From NCBI GenBank assembly GCA_963821925.1, contig CAWGFO010000001.1:521763-585762 (forward strand): DNA of 64,000 nt. Reading direction: 5' to 3'. Of the stretch, positions 3,115 to 38,980 are shown piece after piece. How positions within the stretch are numbered: position 1 is the stretch's first letter; every line of letters begins with the position of its first letter. Source of the stretch: an uncultured Actinomycetes bacterium. GTDB taxonomy: Bacteria > Actinomycetota > UBA4738 > HRBIN12. Made by a program: the position numbers and the translations under genes. The notes below the pieces were generated by a model. That model was not told where the DNA came from, made no database searches, and was given only the letters and a program-made list of their open reading frames with translations.

Positions 3115-3758
3115 CGCAGGAGCTCGGCGGCGCGCCCGATGACCTCGCGCTCACCGCGGTAGGCGGCCCGCTTCATCGCGCGCTCGAGCGGGAACCAGCG
3201 GATCTCCTCCATCTCGTCGTCGTGATCGGCCGGGTCGCCGCCGGTGTGCCGCATCAAGAAGAAATGGACGGTCTTGCGGATCCGGGTGTCCTCCCACACG
3301 TAGAAGTACTTCGTCTCGCCGAGCGACGCCTCGATCTCGGCCGTGAGGCCGGTCTCCTCCTGGACCTCGCGGACGGCGGCCTCCTCGTGGCTCTCGCCTT
3401 CCTCGATCCCGCCCTTGGCGAGGCCCCAGGCGAGTTCCCCTCGCCGGGTCCGGCGCGACGCCAGCACGACCTCGATCCCGTCGTCCACGCGACGGTAGAC
3501 GACCCCGCCCGCCGACACCTCCTTGTGGACCGGGCCCTTACCGGGGGTCTTGGCAGGCGGCTTCCTCTTGCGCCGCTTCCCCGTCGTCTTCCGGGCGGGC
3601 CGGGCCTTCGGCGGGGTCTGCGCCTCGGTGGTGGGTTCGTGGGCGTCCGTCGACGTGGGCTGGGTCGCCGCACCAGGCTGGGCGGGCTTGCGCCGGCGAC
3701 GCCGACGGCGCCGTCGTCCCGACCCGCCGTCCGCCGCTCCGCCGTCCTGCGTTCCCAT
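3111..3758 (-). CDS. NUDIX hydrolase, MutT4-like, with Arg/Lys-rich N-terminal extension
   Basis: Complete Nudix box GGIEEGESHEEAAVREVQEETGL; nine consecutive Arg near the N-terminus; syntenic with DUF6049-murJ. Confidence 0.88.
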   Translation of the reverse strand: MGTQDGGAADGGSGRRRRRRRRRKPAQPGAATQPTSTDAHEPTTEAQTPPKARPARKTTGKRRKRKPPAKTPGKGPVHKEVSAGGVVYRRVDDGIEVVLASRRTRRGELAWGLAKGGIEEGESHEEAAVREVQEETGLTAEIEASLGETKYFYVWEDTRIRKTVHFFLMRHTGGDPADHDDEMEEIRWFPLERAMKRAAYRGEREVIGRAAELLR

Positions 3759-12788: not shown

Positions 12789-13571
12789 TCACCGGCCGCC
12801 CGTCAGGCGGTGACGCATCGAGACGAGCACGACGATCGAGATCACCACGAGGATCAGTGAGAGGAAGATCGCCCCGCCGGGATCCGTCTGCCGAGCCTGG
12901 TAGACGGCCAGCGGCAGGGTCTGTGTCCGTCCCGCCAGGTTCCCCGCGAAGGTGATCGTCGCGCCGAACTCGCCGAGCGCCCGGGCCCAGGCGAGCACGG
13001 CCCCGGCCGCCACCTGCGGCGCCAGCATCGGCAGCACGACCCGCCACATCGCCCGGCTCGGCCGCGCGCCGAGCGTGGCCGCGGCGAGCTCGTAACGCGG
13101 GTCGATCGAGCGCAGACCGGCTTCGGTCGCGATCACGACGAGCGGCATCGACACGAACGTCGCGGCCACGATCGCCCCCCACGTGGTGAAGGTCAGCTGG
13201 ATCCCCAGCGCCTCGTGCAGCCATCGTCCGACGACGCCGCTCCGGCCGAGCGCGAAGAGCAGCCCGAGCCCGCCCACGACCGGCGGGAGCACGAGCGGAA
13301 GGACGACGACAGCCCGCAGCACGGACCGGCCGGGGAACGAACCTCGTGCGAGCACCCACGCGAGGGGAACGCCGAACAGGACCGAGAGCACGGTGGCGCC
13401 GACGGAGACCACCACCGAGAGCCTGAACGCGCTCCCGGCTCCGACGCCGCCGAGCGCCTCGCCCAGATCTCCCCAGGGCGCGCGGACGACGAGCGCGACG
13501 ACGGGGAGCGCGACGAAGGCCGCGCCGATCGCGGCGAGGCAGACCACCGGGAGGGGGAGACGACGGCGCAT
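12789..13571 (-). CDS. modB: Molybdate ABC transporter permease
   Basis: LPLVLPPVVGG, AATLGA EAA loop, WARALGEFGATITFAGNLAGRTQTLPL. Confidence 0.92.
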   Translation of the reverse strand: MRRRLPLPVVCLAAIGAAFVALPVVALVVRAPWGDLGEALGGVGAGSAFRLSVVVSVGATVLSVLFGVPLAWVLARGSFPGRSVLRAVVVLPLVLPPVVGGLGLLFALGRSGVVGRWLHEALGIQLTFTTWGAIVAATFVSMPLVVIATEAGLRSIDPRYELAAATLGARPSRAMWRVVLPMLAPQVAAGAVLAWARALGEFGATITFAGNLAGRTQTLPLAVYQARQTDPGGAIFLSLILVVISIVVLVSMRHRLTGGR

Positions 13572-13575
13572 CCCC

Positions 13576-14371
13576 CTACCCTGCCGTGCCGAACCCGTAC
13601 GCCTCAAGGCTCGCCTGGCCGGCGTCGCTCAGCACGTAGCTGACGAACTCGCCGGCGAGCGTGGCGTCGGGCGCACCGGAGATCACCGCGATCGGGTACG
13701 TCGCCAGCACGTTGACGTCCTCGGGGATCTCCACGGCCGTCACGTCGTTCCCCGCAGCCGACGAGACATCCGAGGTGTAGACGATCGCGGCGTCGGCCTC
13801 GCCCGCGGTGACCTTGGCGACGACGCTCGCGTTGTCCTCCTCGTTCGAGACCACGTTGGCTTCGGCCTCCGTCAGGATGCCCGCGTTCTCGAGCGCCTCG
13901 CGGGCGTAGTCCCCGACCGGCACGCCCTCGGCCGCGAGCACGAGCTGGACGCCCGGCGTCGCGAGGTCGTCGATCGAGGTGATGTTCGCCGGGTTCGTCG
14001 GGGGGCGCGATGATCACGAGCTGATTCGTCGCGAAGTCCGACCGGTCGGTGACGCCGGGGTCGTCCTGCACGGCGTCCATCCACGTGCCGCTCGCGCTCG
14101 CGAAGACGTCGGCGGTCCCCTCGCTCTGGATCTGGCCGGCCAGGCTGTCCGAGGCGCCGAAGTTGAACGTGATCGTCAGCCCGTCGTGCTGGGCCTCGAA
14201 GTCGGGGCCGATCGCGTCCTGGAGGACCGCGGTGAGCGATGACGCGGCGAAGACGGTCAGCTGGGTCTCGGCGCCCGCCGAACCCGTGGCCGCCGTACCG
14301 CTCGAGTCGTCCGACGAACATGCGGCCCCCACGAGCGTGAGCACGAAGAACACGATGATCGGTCGCTGCAC
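13576..14371 (-). CDS. modA: Molybdate ABC transporter substrate-binding lipoprotein, frameshifted in a G6 run at 14000-14005
   Basis: GGAGG RBS plus GTG, lipobox LVGAAC, VFAASSL, FGAS, ADVFASA, FATNQLV. Removing one C from the C6 run (minus strand) gives ...IAPPTNPANITSIDDL... in frame with VPVGDYA...YPIA...FG. Confidence 0.88.
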
Positions 14372-21754: not shown

Positions 21755-21773
21755 TAGTTAGCATTGCGAACTA
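21755..21773. promoter_or_regulatory. Putative MarR operator overlapping the -10 box
   Basis: Imperfect palindrome TAGTTAGC-ATT-GCGAACTA abutting TATCAT (21772-21777) before marR. Confidence 0.5.
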
Positions 21774-21784
21774 TCATGGAGCGT

Positions 21785-22234
21785 ATGACCGATGCCACCC
21801 TACCCCGCACCGTGGATCTCCAGGCCCTCGCCGCGCACCTGCGGATCTCGGTGTTCCGAACGTCCCGCAGGCTCCGGTACCAGGGGGACGCGGGTGTGTC
21901 GCCGACGCTCCTCGCCGCCCTGGCCACGATCGAGCGGCACGGCCCCATGACCCCGGGCGCGCTCGCGGCCCACGAGCACATCCGCAAACCGACCACGACC
22001 CGCATCATCGGATCGCTCTCCGAGCTCGGGATGATCGAGCGCACGCCCGACCCCCTCGACGGGCGGGTCGCGTGGGTCCAGATCACGGCGGTGGGGCGCA
22101 AGCTCCTCCTGCGGGTGCGCCGTCGCAACGACGCGTTCCTATCGGCCCGGCTGAAGCGGCTCACGTCCGACGAGATCGACACGCTCGCGCGTGCGGCCGA
22201 GCTCCTCGACCGCCTCACGGAGGACGACCGTTGA
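21785..22234 (+). CDS. MarR family transcriptional regulator
   Basis: LATIERHGPMTPGALAAHEHI-x-KPTTTRII..L-x-ELGMIERTPDPLDGR..ITAVG. Confidence 0.92.
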   Translation: MTDATLPRTVDLQALAAHLRISVFRTSRRLRYQGDAGVSPTLLAALATIERHGPMTPGALAAHEHIRKPTTTRIIGSLSELGMIERTPDPLDGRVAWVQITAVGRKLLLRVRRRNDAFLSARLKRLTSDEIDTLARAAELLDRLTEDDR

Positions 22235-23490
22235 GCCCGCGCGTCGGCGCGGCGATCGGTCGCACGTTCTCGTCGCTCCGCACCTCGCGGAACTTCCGCC
22301 TGTACCTGTTCGGCCAGCTGGTCTCGTCGGTCGGCACGTGGATGAACTTCACGGCCTCGGCCTGGCTCGTCCTGCAGCTCACCGACAGCGGGACGGCCCT
22401 CGGCGCGAACGTCGCGCTGTATTTCCTCCCCGTCCTGCTCCTCGGCGCGTACGGCGGCGTGCTCGCCGACCGCTTCGACAAGCGGCGGATCTTGATCTGG
22501 ACCCAGTCCGCTTACGCGGTCGTGGCCCTCACGATGTGGGGCGTCGTCGTCTCGGATCTCGTAGAGGGACGCGTATGGATCGTCTTCGTCCTCTCGCTCG
22601 CCAGCGGCGTCGTCACGGCGTTCGACAATCCGACCCGGCAGAGCTTCTACGTCGAGATGGTGGGCGAGGAGCACGTTCGGAACGCGGTCAGCCTGAACAG
22701 CGCCGCGTTCACGGGCTCGCGTGTGATCGGCCCGGCGGTCGCCGGGATCTTGATCGCGACCGTCGGGATCGCGACATGTTTCCTGATCGACGGGCTGTCC
22801 TACCTCGCGGTGCTGACCGCGCTGCTCCTGATGCGTCAGGCCGAGCTGCACCCGCAGACGCGGAGCACCCGCGAACGCGGCCACCTCGTCGCCGGGCTGA
22901 AGTACATCTGGGGCGCCGACGAGCTGCGCCGGCCCCTGATCGCGATGGCGGTCGTGTTCACGTTCGCGTTCAACTTCGCGGTGTTCGTGCCGCTGCTGGC
23001 GGAACGCACGTTCGCCGGCGACGCCGGCACGTTCGGGATGCTCTCCGCGCTCGCGGGGGTGGGGTCCTTCTTCGGGGCGATGACGATGGCGAGCCGCGCG
23101 GCCGAGCCCAAGATGCGAGGTCTGGCTCTCTGGGCGGTCGCGGCCGGCAGCGCGCTGGCGATCGTCGGCCTCGCGCCCACCCTCCCCTTCGCCGCCCTCG
23201 CGATGGTGCCGCTCGGGTTCTCGGTCATGGCGTTCATGATCACGGGGAACACGATGCTGCAGCTGCGCGCGCTCCCGCAGGCGCGGGGCCGCGTGATGGC
23301 CCTCTACGGGATCGTGTTCCTCGGGTCCACGCCGATCGGGGCGCCGATCGCCGGCGTGATCGGGCAACAGCTGGGCCCCCAGGTGGGGTTCGTCCTGAGC
23401 GGGCTCGTGGCCGCCGGACTCGGGCTCTCGCTCCTGTGGGCGTTGCATCGCTCGGCTGCAGGAACCGCCGCGGAGCCGGTGTCGGCCTGA
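22231..23490 (+). CDS. MFS transporter (DUF894/EntS-like)
   Basis: TTGA overlap with marR; RNFRLY..GQLVS..GTWM, GGVLADRFDKRR, RGRVMA. Confidence 0.88.
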   Translation: MSPRVGAAIGRTFSSLRTSRNFRLYLFGQLVSSVGTWMNFTASAWLVLQLTDSGTALGANVALYFLPVLLLGAYGGVLADRFDKRRILIWTQSAYAVVALTMWGVVVSDLVEGRVWIVFVLSLASGVVTAFDNPTRQSFYVEMVGEEHVRNAVSLNSAAFTGSRVIGPAVAGILIATVGIATCFLIDGLSYLAVLTALLLMRQAELHPQTRSTRERGHLVAGLKYIWGADELRRPLIAMAVVFTFAFNFAVFVPLLAERTFAGDAGTFGMLSALAGVGSFFGAMTMASRAAEPKMRGLALWAVAAGSALAIVGLAPTLPFAALAMVPLGFSVMAFMITGNTMLQLRALPQARGRVMALYGIVFLGSTPIGAPIAGVIGQQLGPQVGFVLSGLVAAGLGLSLLWALHRSAAGTAAEPVSA

Positions 23491-23523
23491 GGGATTCGAG
23501 ACGCGTGCCGGCCTCGAGAGGGG

Positions 23524-23623
23524 CCGACGATCCCGGACGGTGGTCGGTGACGCATGACCGAGGGGGAGGTCGTCACCTGTGCCACGGGGAGGGGGTAGCG
23601 CTCCCACCGTCCGGGATCGTCGG
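23524..23623 (-). ncRNA. Candidate 6C-like small RNA: two C-rich-loop hairpins inside a 20-bp closing stem
   Basis: Perfect 20-bp inverted repeat (23524-23543/23604-23623) enclosing, on the minus strand, GCTAC[CCCCTCCCC]GTGGC and GGTGACGACC[TCCCCCTC]GGTCATGCGTCACC. A G.U wobble favours the minus strand. Confidence 0.55.
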
Positions 23624-23703
23624 GTGATGCGATGGTGCGTGGCGCGGATCGCGCCCGTCGGGGGTCGACCGGGAGGCTCTCGCTGCGTCCCTGGCCGCTC
23701 CGA

Positions 23704-23874
23704 CTATCGGTCGGTCGTCGAGGCGATCGCCTCCTCGGCCGAGAGCAGGATCACGTCTCGCTCCTCCTTCGAGAACGCGAGCATCGTCCCGTACCAGCTG
23801 GGCTCGTAGGCCACCTGCCTGCAATCGGGGCAGGTGTCCACGTCGCCCGTCCGGTGTGTCGCGTGATCGCCCAT
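23704..23874 (-). CDS. 56-aa hypothetical protein with a CxxC motif
   Basis: GGAGAACCG-ATG RBS/start; MGDHATHRTGDVDTCPDCRQVAYEPSWYGTMLAFSKEERDVILLSAEEAIASTTDR; high-GC3 codons. Confidence 0.55.
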   Translation of the reverse strand: MGDHATHRTGDVDTCPDCRQVAYEPSWYGTMLAFSKEERDVILLSAEEAIASTTDR

Positions 23875-24024
23875 CGGTTCCTCCGAGTACCGTCCTGACC
23901 TGCACGATGGTGCGCCCATGGCGAGGAGACGTGAATACCCTCGCCATGGGGAAGATAGCTACCATGCGCTAGGTAAGTTGAACTACGTACCACTACGTAG
24001 GTAGTCCGAACGGGTCAGTTCCCG

Positions 24025-24714
24025 TCAGACCGCCTTCACCACGTCCTGGTCGATCCGGAGGAACTTGTAGCCCACCGTCGGATTCCCGATGATGTAGAGC
24101 TGGACGGCGGTACGGGACTCGAAGCTCCGCGTCCCCGGACCGAGGATCGTGTTCGACGTTCCGGCGACCTTGACGCGCGTCACGTAGTCGCCCCACGGCA
24201 GCTGGACCGTCTTCGAGGCCCCCTGCGCGAGCGCCGGAACCGTCATCCGGGTCTTGTTCATGAACACGTTCACGGCCGGGGCGACCGCGACGTGACGGAT
24301 CGACAGCCGGAACTTCCCGCGCTGGGTGTTGGCCAGGTCATTCGAGAACCAGTGGAACCGAACCTTGCCGGTCTGGGCCGACACAGCCGCGACGATCGTG
24401 TAGTTGCCGTCCATCGCCACGGTGCGGGTGAAGTCGGCGGTGATCGGGGTGCCGGTGCAGTTGGCTCCGTTCGCGTACAGCGCGAACGTGTAGTCGCCAG
24501 GGGGCATCAGGGTCGAGAACTTCTGGCGATACGCGAAGTCCTCCTTCGCCGATGCCCCGTTCACGCAGACCTCGACCGTCGCGCCGGGTACGCCGTGCAC
24601 CACCCAGAGCGTCGCGTCGCCGGGTGCGGCCGATGCGGTGCCGGCGGTCGCGAACAGCGACGCCACCACCACTCCTGCCGCCACGAGGGCGGACAGCCGC
24701 CTCATACGTCTCAT
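24025..24714 (-). CDS. Secreted DUF4397-family protein
   Basis: GGGAGG RBS; signal peptide ending ATAGTASA; LWVVHGVPGATVEVCVNG and a second RLSIRHVAVAPAVNV repeat typical of DUF4397. Confidence 0.75.
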   Translation of the reverse strand: MRRMRRLSALVAAGVVVASLFATAGTASAAPGDATLWVVHGVPGATVEVCVNGASAKEDFAYRQKFSTLMPPGDYTFALYANGANCTGTPITADFTRTVAMDGNYTIVAAVSAQTGKVRFHWFSNDLANTQRGKFRLSIRHVAVAPAVNVFMNKTRMTVPALAQGASKTVQLPWGDYVTRVKVAGTSNTILGPGTRSFESRTAVQLYIIGNPTVGYKFLRIDQDVVKAV

Positions 24715-24901
24715 CGAAAGCCTCCCTTTCCATCCCGGTGCGGGCTCACGTGACGGCTGCGGGATGGGATCAGCCGGCGCCATGGTCGTACCTCGAAGGT
24801 TCTCACCCGCCGCCGGGCCCCGCATCGGCCGAACGGACGAGCGGGGCGAGACCTTCGGACGAGCCGGGCCGTGACATCGGCCGGCCCGGGCCCGTCGTCG
24901 C

Positions 24902-26365
24902 TCACTCGGGGAGCTCACGGTCGATCGTCCACTCGCCGTCGGGCTCGCAGCTGCTGACGTCGAGGACGGTGCCATCGGTCAACGCGAGCCGGAAGGTGCG
25001 GAACCGCTCACCCTCCCGTTCGACGCGCGCCGAGCGGACGACCTCGACCGGTTCCTCGATCCCGCCCCAGACGATGGCTCGCGGCCATTCCTCGGCCCGG
25101 GCGCCCTCGTAGAACCGCAGCCGGATCTCGGGTTCGTCCCGGATCCACCGCGGCAGCACCGGCGCCCACAGCAGGAACACGATGCCGACCAGCGCGGCCG
25201 ACCCCGCCTCGCCGATCGTCGGCAGCAGGACGATCGCGAGCACCGCCGCGAGGAGACGCGACAGGTTGTACGCGACGTCGTAGACGGCGAACACGCGGCC
25301 TCGCAACCCGTCGGGGACGGCCTCCTGCACCATCGTGTCCACGGGGATCTTCTTCCAGGCGAACGAGAGACCGATCGCGAAGCTCGCGATCAGTACGGTC
25401 CACCGGTCGAGGAACAGGCTCACGGCGAGCAGGGACACGCCGCCGAACACGAACGACCACGCGATGATGCGCTCGCGCGCGAACCGTCGGTCGAGCCGTC
25501 CCACGGTGGCGAGCCCGAGGAACACGCCCACCCCGCCGGCGCCGATCAGCCACGAGAACGAGCCCACGCCCTCGTTGAAGCGCTCCTTGAAGACGACGAG
25601 CGCGAGAACGAGCACGAGTCCCTGCCCCATCTGGTCGACCGAGATCGAGGCGATCGGGCCGACGGCCCGCGGGGTACGAACGATGTGGCGGATCCCGTCC
25701 GAGAACTCCACGCCGATCCGCCGGATCTCGTGTCGGAGGAGCTCCGGGGACTCGGGGAGCTGATGAGGCCGAAGGTCGCTACGGATCGTGACCGCGATGC
25801 CCGACGCGACCAGCCAGGCGGCCGCGGCGACCGTGACGATCGCGACGTTCCCGTAGGTGTCGGACACGAGTCCCCCCGCGAAGACCCCGACGAGCAGCGC
25901 GACCGTGCCGCCGACCGTCGCGACCGAGTTCGCGGCCAGGAGATCCTCGGTCGGAACCAGCCTCGGCACCACGGCCTGTGCGGTCGCGAGGAAGAACCGG
26001 TTCACCGAGATGACCCACAGCGCCCCCGCGTAGAACAGGAGCGCGCGACGGTCGGGGTTCAGCAAGACGAGGAAGGCGGGTGCGGCGCGCAGGATCGGCG
26101 CGACCACCATGATCTTGCGGCGCGACCATCGGTCGATGAAGACCCCCGCGAAGGGCCCGAGGATCGAGAACGGGATGATCACGATCGCCGACGCCAGCGC
26201 GAAGCTCGCCGCGGTCGTCGCTCGCTCGGGCGAGAAGACGAGCGAGGCGACGAGCGCCGCCTGGATGAACCCGTCGGCGGTCTGGCTCACGAGCCGGATC
26301 CCCAGGAGCCGCCGGAAGTCGGGGTGGCGCAGCGTATCGCGAACGCTCCCCATCTTCCCGGCCAT
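24902..26365 (-). CDS. MFS transporter (Rv0037c-like) with an extra soluble C-terminal domain
   Basis: FRRLLGIRLVSQTADG, PFS-x-LGPFAGVFIDRWSRR, RGRVFAVYD; then about 75 hydrophilic residues in frame. Confidence 0.85.
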   Translation of the reverse strand: MAGKMGSVRDTLRHPDFRRLLGIRLVSQTADGFIQAALVASLVFSPERATTAASFALASAIVIIPFSILGPFAGVFIDRWSRRKIMVVAPILRAAPAFLVLLNPDRRALLFYAGALWVISVNRFFLATAQAVVPRLVPTEDLLAANSVATVGGTVALLVGVFAGGLVSDTYGNVAIVTVAAAAWLVASGIAVTIRSDLRPHQLPESPELLRHEIRRIGVEFSDGIRHIVRTPRAVGPIASISVDQMGQGLVLVLALVVFKERFNEGVGSFSWLIGAGGVGVFLGLATVGRLDRRFARERIIAWSFVFGGVSLLAVSLFLDRWTVLIASFAIGLSFAWKKIPVDTMVQEAVPDGLRGRVFAVYDVAYNLSRLLAAVLAIVLLPTIGEAGSAALVGIVFLLWAPVLPRWIRDEPEIRLRFYEGARAEEWPRAIVWGGIEEPVEVVRSARVEREGERFRTFRLALTDGTVLDVSSCEPDGEWTIDRELPE

Positions 26366-26424
26366 GGCCCGAGCGTACTTGCGGTGGCTTCGGAAACGCC
26401 CCCCGAGATGCCGATACGGGGAGG

Positions 26425-28189
26425 GTGCGACGCGTCTTCTACCTCATCCCGGCCGTGCTGCTGACGGCTTCGTTCGTAGTGGCGGCTCGCAGCGTGCCTT
26501 CGTTCGCGGTGGCGCCGGGATCCAACGGTGCGATCGCGTTCGAGTCCGACCGTGACGGGGACCTCGAGATCTTCACGATCCGGTCGGACGGCACGGGACT
26601 GCTGCAGCTGACGCACAACACCGTCGCCGATCGGAACCCGGCGTGGTCCCCCGACGGGACGACCCTCGTATTCGTCCGCGATGCCTGCAACGGAACCTGC
26701 CGGAACCTCTGGCAGATCGGCGCCGACGGCACCGGTGAGCTGCAGCTGACGAACGAGGTGGGCATCGCCGATGCCGATCCGACTTGGTCGCCGGACGGCA
26801 CCACCATCGCATTCGCGCACCCGACGAACGATGGGACCGGTCAGTTCTTCAAGCAGATCTGGACGATCCCGGCGGCGGGAGGCTCGATGACCAAGCTCAC
26901 GTCGTCGGCGTACGCGAACTGGTCACCGGACTGGTCACCCGACGGTTCGAAGATCGTCTTCTACTCGACGCGCGTCGACCCCGGCACGCTCTACTCGATG
27001 AACGCGGACGGCACCGCGCAGGCGAAGGTGACGTTCACCGGTGCGTCGACCCCACCCGCATACCTCCTTGGCGGTCCCTCCTGGTCACCCGACGGCACGA
27101 CGTTCGCCTTCCATGGGGCAAACAGTGCGACGCTCGAGGTGCCGCGTCTCGTGCTCGCGAACGTCGACGGGACCGATACCCGGACCCTGTGGGATCCGAC
27201 CGGAGAGGTCTACCCGCCCTCCTGGGCACCTGACGGGCAGAAGCTCGTCGTGACCGTGAACAGCGGGAGCGGCTCCGTCACCAACATGCAGCTCTACGTC
27301 GTGGACGCATCGGATGGCTCTGCGTACGTGCTCGCGTCGTCTTCGTTCACCGAGCAGAACCCGAGCTGGCAACCGACGGCGGCCGGCGTTTCAGCGACCC
27401 CTTCCCCGAGCCCGAGTTCGACCCCGAGCGCCTCCCCTTCCCCGAGCCCGAGCGCCTCCCCTTCCCCGAGCCCGAGCTCCCTCCCCGAGCCCGAGCGCCT
27501 CCCCTTCCCCGAGCCCGAGCGCCTCCCCTTCCCCGAGCCCGAGCGCCTCCCCTTCCCCGAGCCCGAGCGCCTCCCCTTCCCCGAGCCCGAGCGCCTCCCC
27601 TTCCCCGAGCCCGAGCGCCTCCCCTTCCCCGAGCCCCACCTCCTCGCCTCCGCCGCTACCTCCCCCGGACGGGGTTCACGTTGAGGTCACCGACAACCTG
27701 TTCACGCCCGCCACCGCCGCGATCCCGCTGGGCGGGACGATCGTCTTCGACCATCTGGGCCCGTCGCACCACACGGCAACCGACGGAACGGGGATGCTTC
27801 TGTACGACTCCGGCTCCGTCGATGAGACCAGCCCGCCCACCTGGTACACGTTCGAGGCGTCAGGGCGCTATCCGTTCATCTGTGTCTTCCACCCCGAGAT
27901 GTCGGGCCGCGCATACGTGTCCATCGAGGCGGGGCCGGCCACGGGCCCGGCGGGCAAGATCCGGAAGGTGACCTACGCGACGGCGATCGCGCTCGACGGC
28001 TTCGCGTACGACGTCCAGATCAGGCGTCCGGGCAAGCACTGGACCTCCTGGCGCAAGGGCACCCCGTGGCCCTCGGCTTCGTTCCTCGCCGACGCCGGGA
28101 AGGGCACGTATCGATTCCGCGCGCGGCTCCGGGAGGTGGGGCAGGCAGCCTCGGGTTGGTCGCGGCCCGCCGTCGTCCAGGTCGGGTAG
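26425..28189 (+). CDS. Secreted TolB-like (PD40) beta-propeller + Ser/Pro linker + cupredoxin + Fn3-like domain; frameshifted inside the linker repeat
   Basis: Signal peptide; repeated P-x-WSPDG motifs; after the repeat a second frame gives F-x-P...HTAT...YPFICVFHPEMSG and YDVQ..W..Y-x-FRAR..WS. Confidence 0.8.
27400..27634 (+). repeat. 24-bp tandem repeat encoding PSASPSPS
   Basis: Unit CCGAGCGCCTCCCCTTCCCCGAGC: perfect copies at 27424 and 27448, a 19-bp degenerate copy at 27472-27490, six perfect copies at 27491-27634, and a partial copy upstream. Confidence 0.95.
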
Positions 28190-38879: not shown

Positions 38880-38980
38880 GTCGCGCAGGGCGGCCTGGCT
38901 CGTCCACTCGGGCGGTGGACCTACAGTTGCGGGACAGCGCCGGAATCTGACCGGCTTCGCCTCCGCGACGCGTTGTGGGC
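38880..38980 (-). ncRNA. Cobalamin (B12) riboswitch
   Basis: Minus strand reads GCGAAGCCGGTCAGATTCCGGCGCTGTCCCGCAACTGT-(GTCCAC hairpin)-GAGCCAGGCCGCC, matching the B12-element core. TAGCGT -10 at 38984-38989; lies upstream of an ECF operon. Confidence 0.85.

Follow-up and report, generated by a model that had tools for sequence, protein, structure and literature searches.

To our knowledge, the 6C RNA is the only C-rich-loop riboregulator of Actinobacteria that has been studied mechanistically so far. Its neighbors, as described by Weinberg et al. in 2007, are reportedly ssd, chromosome-partitioning or pilus genes. The family (RF01066) consists of two hairpins whose C-rich loops bind to G-rich ribosome-binding sites and need neither Hfq nor ProQ as a chaperone for this. 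By definition, each of the two loops contains about six conserved cytosines or more; B11/ncRv13660c of M. tuberculosis and scr3558 of S. coelicolor are examples (PMC6486639). In Streptomyces, the highly expressed sRNAs scr5583 and scr1434 form stable stem-loops with C-rich terminal loops (PMC3765725). The CcsR RNAs of Rhodobacter, which carry anti-Shine-Dalgarno (anti-SD) loops, are cut by RNase E from the 3' UTR of a small ORF and are bound by the small DUF1127 protein CcaF1 (PMC8034643).

The locus analyzed here lies in a window of 64 kb, by which we mean the whole stretch of DNA under study, with a G+C content of about 70-75%. A first-pass annotation had described an intergenic three-way junction on the minus strand at 23524-23623, with a perfect 20-bp repeat and a G.U pair that works on this strand only, and all of these features could be confirmed. 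A repeat search recovered the perfect inverted repeat with two 20-nt arms at 23524-23543 and 23604-23623 (100% complementary, 60 nt apart), and the minus-strand fold of the junction reaches -63.6 kcal/mol (z = -5.9 against dinucleotide shuffles, equaled by 0 of 200 shuffles). The arms form the 20-bp closing stem P1 (23623-23604 with 23543-23524), which encloses two hairpins. Hairpin 1 (23599-23581) has the sequence GCUAC[CCCCUCCCC]GUGGC with the loop CCCCUCCCC at 23594-23586, and hairpin 2 (23577-23546) reads GGUGACGACC[UCCCCCUC]GGUC-AUGC-GUCACC with the loop UCCCCCUC at 23567-23560, so that the first loop presents eight and the second six cytosines. The U.G pair of hairpin 1 exists on the minus strand only and is a C.A mismatch on the plus strand. 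The site is flanked by an MFS_3 gene (+), which ends at 23490 and thus 33 nt short of the junction, and by a 56-aa ORF (-), which ends at 23704. No further copy of the 20-mer stem arm is present in the 64-kb window when up to three mismatches are allowed.

The surrounding genes are arranged around this gap in a fixed manner. The MFS_3-family transporter of 419 aa (22231-23490, +; Pfam MFS_3, 2.9e-50) is preceded by marR (21764-22234, +; Pfam MarR, 1.2e-13) and runs convergently to the small ORF. Upstream of the small ORF, domain searches identified a DUF4397 gene (24025-24717, -), a second MFS_3 gene (24902-26365, -) and, in divergent orientation, a gene for a PD40/TolB-like beta-propeller protein (26425-27684, +). 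In all contigs with the small ORF the gene order is constant, namely MFS_3, sometimes DUF4397, the small ORF, about 200 nt, the convergent MFS_3 and marR, and wherever the RNA is present it begins at the small-ORF stop codon. The PD40 gene itself carries a 24-nt tandem repeat at 27419-27636 (+; 9.3 copies, 94% matches), which encodes (PEPERLPF)n at the C-terminus of the protein after an SPSPSA-type low-complexity stretch. At 13548-13581 of the window, CGGGAGGGGG (+) and GGGTAGGGGG (-) are 14 nt apart and together make up a G-rich/C-rich inverted repeat, which is a possible hairpin.

The interval 23524-23623 delimits the junction correctly but covers only the 3' half of the conserved element, which reaches 23704 upstream; the first-pass annotation had left out about 90 nt of conserved RNA made up of two hairpin domains and a C/A-rich linker. 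The complete element is a conserved RNA of about 190 nt on the minus strand, from 23704 to approximately 23515, with the junction as its 3' domain (domain 3), and it spans the gap between the small ORF and the convergent marR-MFS_3 operon. In alignments of the intergenic DNA, conservation sets in at the small-ORF stop codon and continues slightly beyond the 3' arm of the junction. Single-sequence folds of four diverse members agree on a layout of domain 1, domain 2, linker, domain 3 and tail. Domain 1 (23657-23704) is closed by the helix GUCGG/CCGAC, which overlaps the UAG stop codon by one nucleotide, its first G being the last letter of UAG. Inside this helix sits an extended hairpin, the apical loop of which, AGCGAGA(G) at 23684-23678, is conserved, and the inner helices GGGAcGC/GCcUCCC, GCCGC/GCGGC, GUCGC/GCGAC and GGGCC/GGCCC covary. 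Domain 2 (23641-23655) is a short G+C hairpin, GGCGCG-AUC-CGCGCC, in which all six pairs change on both sides across the homologues, in a region where the alignment register is imperfect. It is followed by the C/A-rich linker ACGCACCAUCGCAUCAC (23624-23640), which is unpaired in all folds and partly conserved, and homologues carry one to three ACGCA repeats in this segment.

After the junction the RNA ends in a C/U-rich 3' tail, GGCCCCUCUCGAGG (23510-23523, consensus GGYCCYUC). This tail, CCCCUCUCG, has no U-tract, and a consensus scan of 23300-24100 detected no site resembling an intrinsic terminator on either strand. The element does not qualify as a canonical intrinsic terminator, since its G+C-rich hairpin is not followed by a U-tract. 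The CGAGAG of the domain-1 loop could pair with CUCUCG of the tail to form a pseudoknot, and at locus L014 the corresponding sequences are CGAGGG and CCCUCG; this loop-tail pairing is inconsistent, being stronger than with shuffled tails in no more than roughly half of the sequences and missing from six. Between the RNA and the stop codon of MFS_3 lies an unconstrained spacer (23491-23515) with a mean pairwise column identity of 0.11. We found no description of the element in the literature searched, and the RNA of about 190 nt is an undescribed structured RNA outside Rfam 15.

The distribution of the homologues is narrow. When 185,579 species genomes were searched for an exact pattern of the two loops, 12 matches resulted, three of which are true, one per genome and all in MAGs designated "Actinomycetes bacterium"; as the scan relied on the exact core pattern, diverged extra copies could escape it. 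The remaining matches, in Streptomyces, Nonomuraea, Planctomycetales and others, were discarded as chance hits, as was locus L034. A scan of metagenomes added nine loci, some of them duplicates of sequences already found, and one chance match. Altogether, 17 distinct sequences from syntenic loci of uncultured Actinomycetota are available. A covariance model built from 15 distinct sequences scores the sense strand with 150-193 bits at the close loci and with 97 bits at L018, the most diverged of these, and the antisense strand with 22-32 bits through the palindromic stem. Two distant homologues, L040 and L045, which were found via remoter relatives of the small ORF, score 38 and 42 bits. When L018, L040 and L045 are folded singly, the same junction and the same loops are formed from other stem sequences, with z-scores of the junction between -4.9 and -6.6. 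The mean pairwise identity amounts to 0.75-0.86 for the bulk of the junction, drops to 0.65 in the 3' arm and lies at 0.48-0.72 in domains 1 and 2 and the linker; for the most part, these values are comparable to those of the coding DNA on either side.

The homologues also carry the compensatory changes by which the structure can be judged. In a model-guided alignment of 16 sequences, 14 pairs are changed on both sides, a count attained by 0 of 500 shuffles (mean 8.5), and the controls with slid partners yield 2-4 pairs. With L040 and L045 included (17 sequences), 22 of 53 pairs are compensatory and 90% of the cells are paired; here the shuffled mean is 10.5, again 0 of 500 shuffles reach 22, and the slid-partner controls give 4-6. 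All of these pair counts come from alignments fitted to the model structure, an effect that the slid-partner control and the single-sequence folds mitigate and do not remove. P1 shows six covarying pairs once the distant members are included. Within the close clade, P1 and hairpin 2 are near-invariant (14 of the 19 P1 pairs never vary), whereas domains 1 and 2 covary freely, and the C-rich loops hardly vary, if at all, among the 17 sequences. The junction stems are far more invariant in sequence than pairing by itself would demand, which hints at an additional constraint at the sequence level, possibly by a protein or by tertiary contacts, for which a simple base-pairing model does not account. 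The junction is a genuine conserved structured RNA element and a chance palindrome is excluded.

In a sister lineage, a short variant of about 85 nt follows the small ORF (L042, 4154-4246; L043, approximately 3163-3270; L044, 3163-3252). Its UAG stop codon runs directly into the hairpin GCCCG[GGAUCCCCCUCG]CGGGC, and its 3' part is a long interrupted G+C hairpin that extends up to the MFS stop and shows compensatory changes between the loci. As the short variant keeps a C-rich loop, such a loop immediately after the small ORF is a persistent feature.

The small ORF that had been claimed upstream of the junction exists, is conserved and abuts the RNA. It encodes a protein of 56 aa, MGDHATHRTGDVDTCPDCRQVAYEPSWYGTMLAFSKEERDVILLSAEEAIASTTDR (23704-23874, -), taken from the ORF list and supported by homologues. 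The start, which was chosen as the biologically sensible one, is the ATG at 23874 behind the SD sequence GGAGGAA (23884-23878), and the UAG stop codon occupies 23706-23704. Homologues were found in 15 clusters (E-values of 1e-27 to 7e-9), all of them from metagenomes or MAGs, a profile search retrieved 59 clusters, and 33 clusters at 50% identity were found among 1.84 billion representatives. The nucleotide alignment varies at third codon positions. The protein has no match in Pfam or NCBIfam, and its AF2 model (pLDDT 73) contains two C-terminal helices. A wider family of small proteins with 45-77 aa, whose members are known only from uncultured Actinomycetota, shares the core HxxHxAGTVxxCxxCxxxAYEPSWYAxLLAF; the close clade of the window protein keeps a C-terminal MLAFSKEERDVILLSAEEAI instead of this core, and the Cys pair is lost in some close relatives (L018, L024). 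Judged from these sequence comparisons, the small ORF is a real gene of an unannotated family.

Upstream of the small ORF, the alignment across loci revealed a conserved non-coding region (23875-24010, -), which is probably a promoter/operator together with the 5' leader. It contains ACTACGTA twice (23982-23989 and 23992-23999) within four TA(C/G)NTAG-like motifs, and a perfect 12-bp inverted repeat (23915-23926 and 23939-23950), the arms of which covary in homologues, brackets the invariant GGGTATTC. This could be an operator or promoter element, where a GGGTAT resembles a SigB/SigF-type -10 element, or a hairpin of the 5' leader. A consensus scan of 23300-24100 found no sigma-70-like promoter. 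Furthermore, GCACCATCG in the 5' leader (23913-23905, -) recurs in the linker of the RNA (23638-23630), and both copies of this 9-mer, GCACCAUCG, are conserved in many homologues and may represent a shared site for a nuclease or a protein.

The first-pass annotation had proposed a 6C-like or new trans-acting RNA and had pointed to the C-rich loops of the 6C and cuckoo RNAs. Membership in either of these two families is not supported. A cmscan of the whole window against Rfam 15 at the gathering score returned neither 6C nor cuckoo/ar14, and its sole match lies elsewhere, a cobalamin riboswitch aptamer (RF00174) at 38894-38955 (-) with 32.1 bits against a gathering score of 31.5, covering model positions 51-163 of 189. 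Searches at E<=10 with 23400-23760 (361 nt) and 23518-23630 (113 nt) likewise returned no 6C and no cuckoo/ar14; the lax matches were noise from miRNA-like long stems and an S6-S18 leader at 19.7 bits. Genomic context and architecture differ as well.

With a probability of about one half, we favor the interpretation that the RNA is a new 3'-UTR riboregulator of the 56-aa ORF that would act in a way analogous to 6C or CcsR. The RNA is most probably co-transcribed with the small ORF as its 3' UTR. This is the simplest assumption because no promoter is evident between ORF and RNA and because the RNA begins at the stop codon, and the conservation of an ORF that abuts the RNA makes co-transcription plausible. 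By analogy to 6C and CcsR/cuckoo, the loops ACCCCCUCCCCG and CCCCCUC would pair with G-rich or SD sequences of target mRNAs and repress their translation. The regulatory module may be freed from the mRNA by an RNase E-type cleavage in the C/A-rich linker. Mycobacterial RNase E cleaves C-rich single strands just upstream of cytidines, which makes the linker a candidate release site (PMC10641625). Alternatively, RNase III may cut in the long stem, as the first-pass annotation had suggested. The closing stem of 14-20 bp probably acts in addition as a stable structure for the 3' end or for termination, located between the two convergent genes. As a terminating ribosome must melt the first helix of domain 1, translation could modulate this domain.

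Targets of the loops were sought in the module itself and in its neighbors. Compared with the 5' leader of the module, the loops match only the generic SD sequence GGAGG without a conserved position, and no extended complementarity in cis was found. A search over the gene starts of MFS2, DUF4397, the small ORF, MFS, MarR, a hypothetical protein, a methyltransferase and PD40 at seven loci gave no consistently strong target, and the energies do not stand out from those of random 47-mers (mean -10.1, sd 3.6 kcal/mol). In the window, the ribosome-binding region of the PD40 gene, GGGGAGGGUG (26418-26427, +, GUG start), pairs with loop 1 at -20.8 kcal/mol. PD40 was rejected as a conserved target, since the G-run of its G-rich SD (26418-26425 in the window) is missing from L007 and reduced in L009.

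Several other explanations have to be weighed against this riboregulator. The perfect 20-bp inverted repeat by itself would suit a dispersed REP- or MITE-like palindrome, for which the first-pass annotation had named many dispersed copies as the telling sign. Neither the 64-kb window nor 276 kb of loci contains a second match to the covariance model, the core pattern matched once per genome, and the one copy per locus always occupies the same syntenic site; the element is therefore single-copy and syntenic, and this explanation is effectively refuted. The other sign against a functional RNA that the first-pass annotation had named for the homologues, a lack of compensatory changes, does not apply either. 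It is also highly improbable that the RNA is a strongly diverged orthologue of the actinobacterial 6C. The actinobacterial genome and the two hairpins with at least six cytosines in each loop speak for such an origin, but the Rfam 6C model stays unmatched even at E<=10 on the 113-nt segment, and three domains, a 20-bp closure, an attached ORF and an unrelated neighborhood are hard to reconcile with it. A functional RNA on the plus strand, which would be the 3' UTR of MFS_3 and expose the G-rich, SD-like loops GGGGAGGGG and GAGGGGGA, has in its favor that the plus-strand fold of the junction is at least as stable (-69.6 kcal/mol, z = -4.1, with raw energies below those of the minus strand) and that some P1 positions are A.C on the minus and G.U on the plus strand. 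In P1 alone, the cells that favor either strand are about balanced. Over all cells, 25 G.U on the minus strand compare with 16 A.C, L040 has G.U pairing in P1 and L045 in hairpin 2, and hairpin 1 carries U.G in seven of 17 sequences and U-A or C-G in the others, which means a C.A mismatch for a plus-strand RNA in these seven. The structure conservation index is 0.56 for the minus and 0.51 for the plus strand. The unpaired segments are A/C-rich on the minus strand, while the linker of a plus-strand RNA would be G/U-rich. The most stable helix is 3'-terminal only in the minus orientation, and on the plus strand domains 1 and 2 would lie past this strongest, terminator-like stem. Finally, no gap lies between the element and the small-ORF stop codon, whereas the unconstrained spacer separates it from the MFS stop. 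Taken together, this evidence is modest and not decisive, yet it favors the minus strand, and we regard a plus-strand RNA as very doubtful.

Two further explanations remain live and are compatible with the favored riboregulator. The element could be purely structural, a bidirectional terminator without U-tract and a block to exonucleases at the 3' ends of the small-ORF and marR-MFS_3 transcripts, with C-rich loops that are incidental or serve as recognition sites for RNase E or Rho. Its position exactly between convergent genes, the long G+C stem as the most stable feature, the long hairpin with which the short variant abuts the MFS stop and the balance of wobble and mismatch cells in P1 between the strands are in line with this, as are the hypothesis mentioned by Mai et al. 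that C-rich stem-loops are alternative terminators (PMC6486639) and the preference of mycobacterial RNase E for C-rich single strands (PMC10641625). A terminator would, however, need neither invariant loop sequences nor two more covarying domains, an AGCGAGA loop and 190 nt of conservation, and the missing U-tract does not help this explanation, which we consider unlikely. The other possibility is an element of the 3' UTR dedicated to the small ORF, either as a binding site for the small protein on its own RNA, as CcaF1 binds CcsR, or in cis as a switch coupled to translation, given that a ribosome terminating at the stop codon has to melt domain 1. In favor of such a role, ORF and RNA occur together without exception at all loci including the distant ones, the stop codon overlaps the first helix, the stem sequences are conserved beyond the needs of pairing and CcaF1 sets a precedent (PMC8034643). 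On the other hand, the small protein has no recognizable RNA-binding domain and its two-helix model is of medium confidence only, the core of the wide family (N-terminal HxxH..CxxC..AYEPSWYA) differs from the part conserved in the RNA-bearing clade, and extended complementarity in cis is lacking; we assume this role to be less likely still. More speculative still, and improbable in our view, is that the HxxH..CxxC..AYEPSWYA mini-protein and the RNA constitute a dedicated and undescribed regulatory module of protein and RNA, translation-coupled via the stop-codon helix. Such a module would govern both flanking MFS_3 exporters, be it as a ribonucleoprotein or, for instance, as a gate on antisense read-through into marR-MFS_3, and would be no plain anti-SD sRNA.

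If the RNA is transcribed as proposed, the favored riboregulator would constitute a second, structurally distinct class of C-rich-loop (anti-SD) riboregulators in Actinobacteria, and the design of a small ORF followed by a C-rich-loop RNA in its 3' UTR, as in ccaF1-CcsR, would have arisen independently in a second phylum. The analysis also defines a new small-protein family and a conserved neighborhood of MFS_3, small ORF, RNA and convergent MFS_3-marR in soil and sediment Actinomycetota of which no representative is in culture. Uncultured hosts and a narrow distribution limit the practical value of the finding.

A comparison with the described systems shows how far the resemblance goes. Like 6C, the window RNA belongs to an actinobacterial host and has two hairpins with runs of cytosines in the apical loops, and at least six cytosines are found in both loops and conserved in the 17 homologues. 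Unlike in 6C, these hairpins are enclosed by a stem of 14-20 bp in a three-way junction, two further conserved domains lie upstream, and the distribution is narrow and confined to uncultured lineages. Instead of forming a free-standing gene, the RNA abuts a small ORF and has DUF4397, MFS_3 and marR-MFS_3 as neighbors. The single stem-loops of scr5583 and scr1434 differ from the junction as well, and no sequence relation to them is evident. With the U-tract-less terminators of high-G+C bacteria the element shares the position between convergent genes and the long G+C stem, but not the conserved loops, the several domains and the covariation over 190 nt. The operon organization agrees with that of CcsR/cuckoo (ar14, NfeR), where a small ORF of 50-70 codons is likewise followed by anti-SD C-rich hairpins in the 3' UTR, two per unit, and the arrangement in the window would be compatible with processing by RNase E and binding by the small protein as in those systems. 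These RNAs are found in Alphaproteobacteria and the window RNA in MAGs of Actinomycetota; CcsR consists of tandem units and the window RNA of a single one; the ORF of CcsR encodes a DUF1127 protein (CIN1 context), while the small ORF of the window has neither DUF1127 nor any other Pfam match; and the cuckoo loop motif CCUCCUCCC has only the anti-SD core CCUCC in common with CCCCUCCCC and UCCCCCUC. The window RNA is thus a member of neither 6C nor cuckoo, though it resembles the C-rich-loop riboregulators, and it is set apart from them by its architecture and by being linked to a new family of small proteins.
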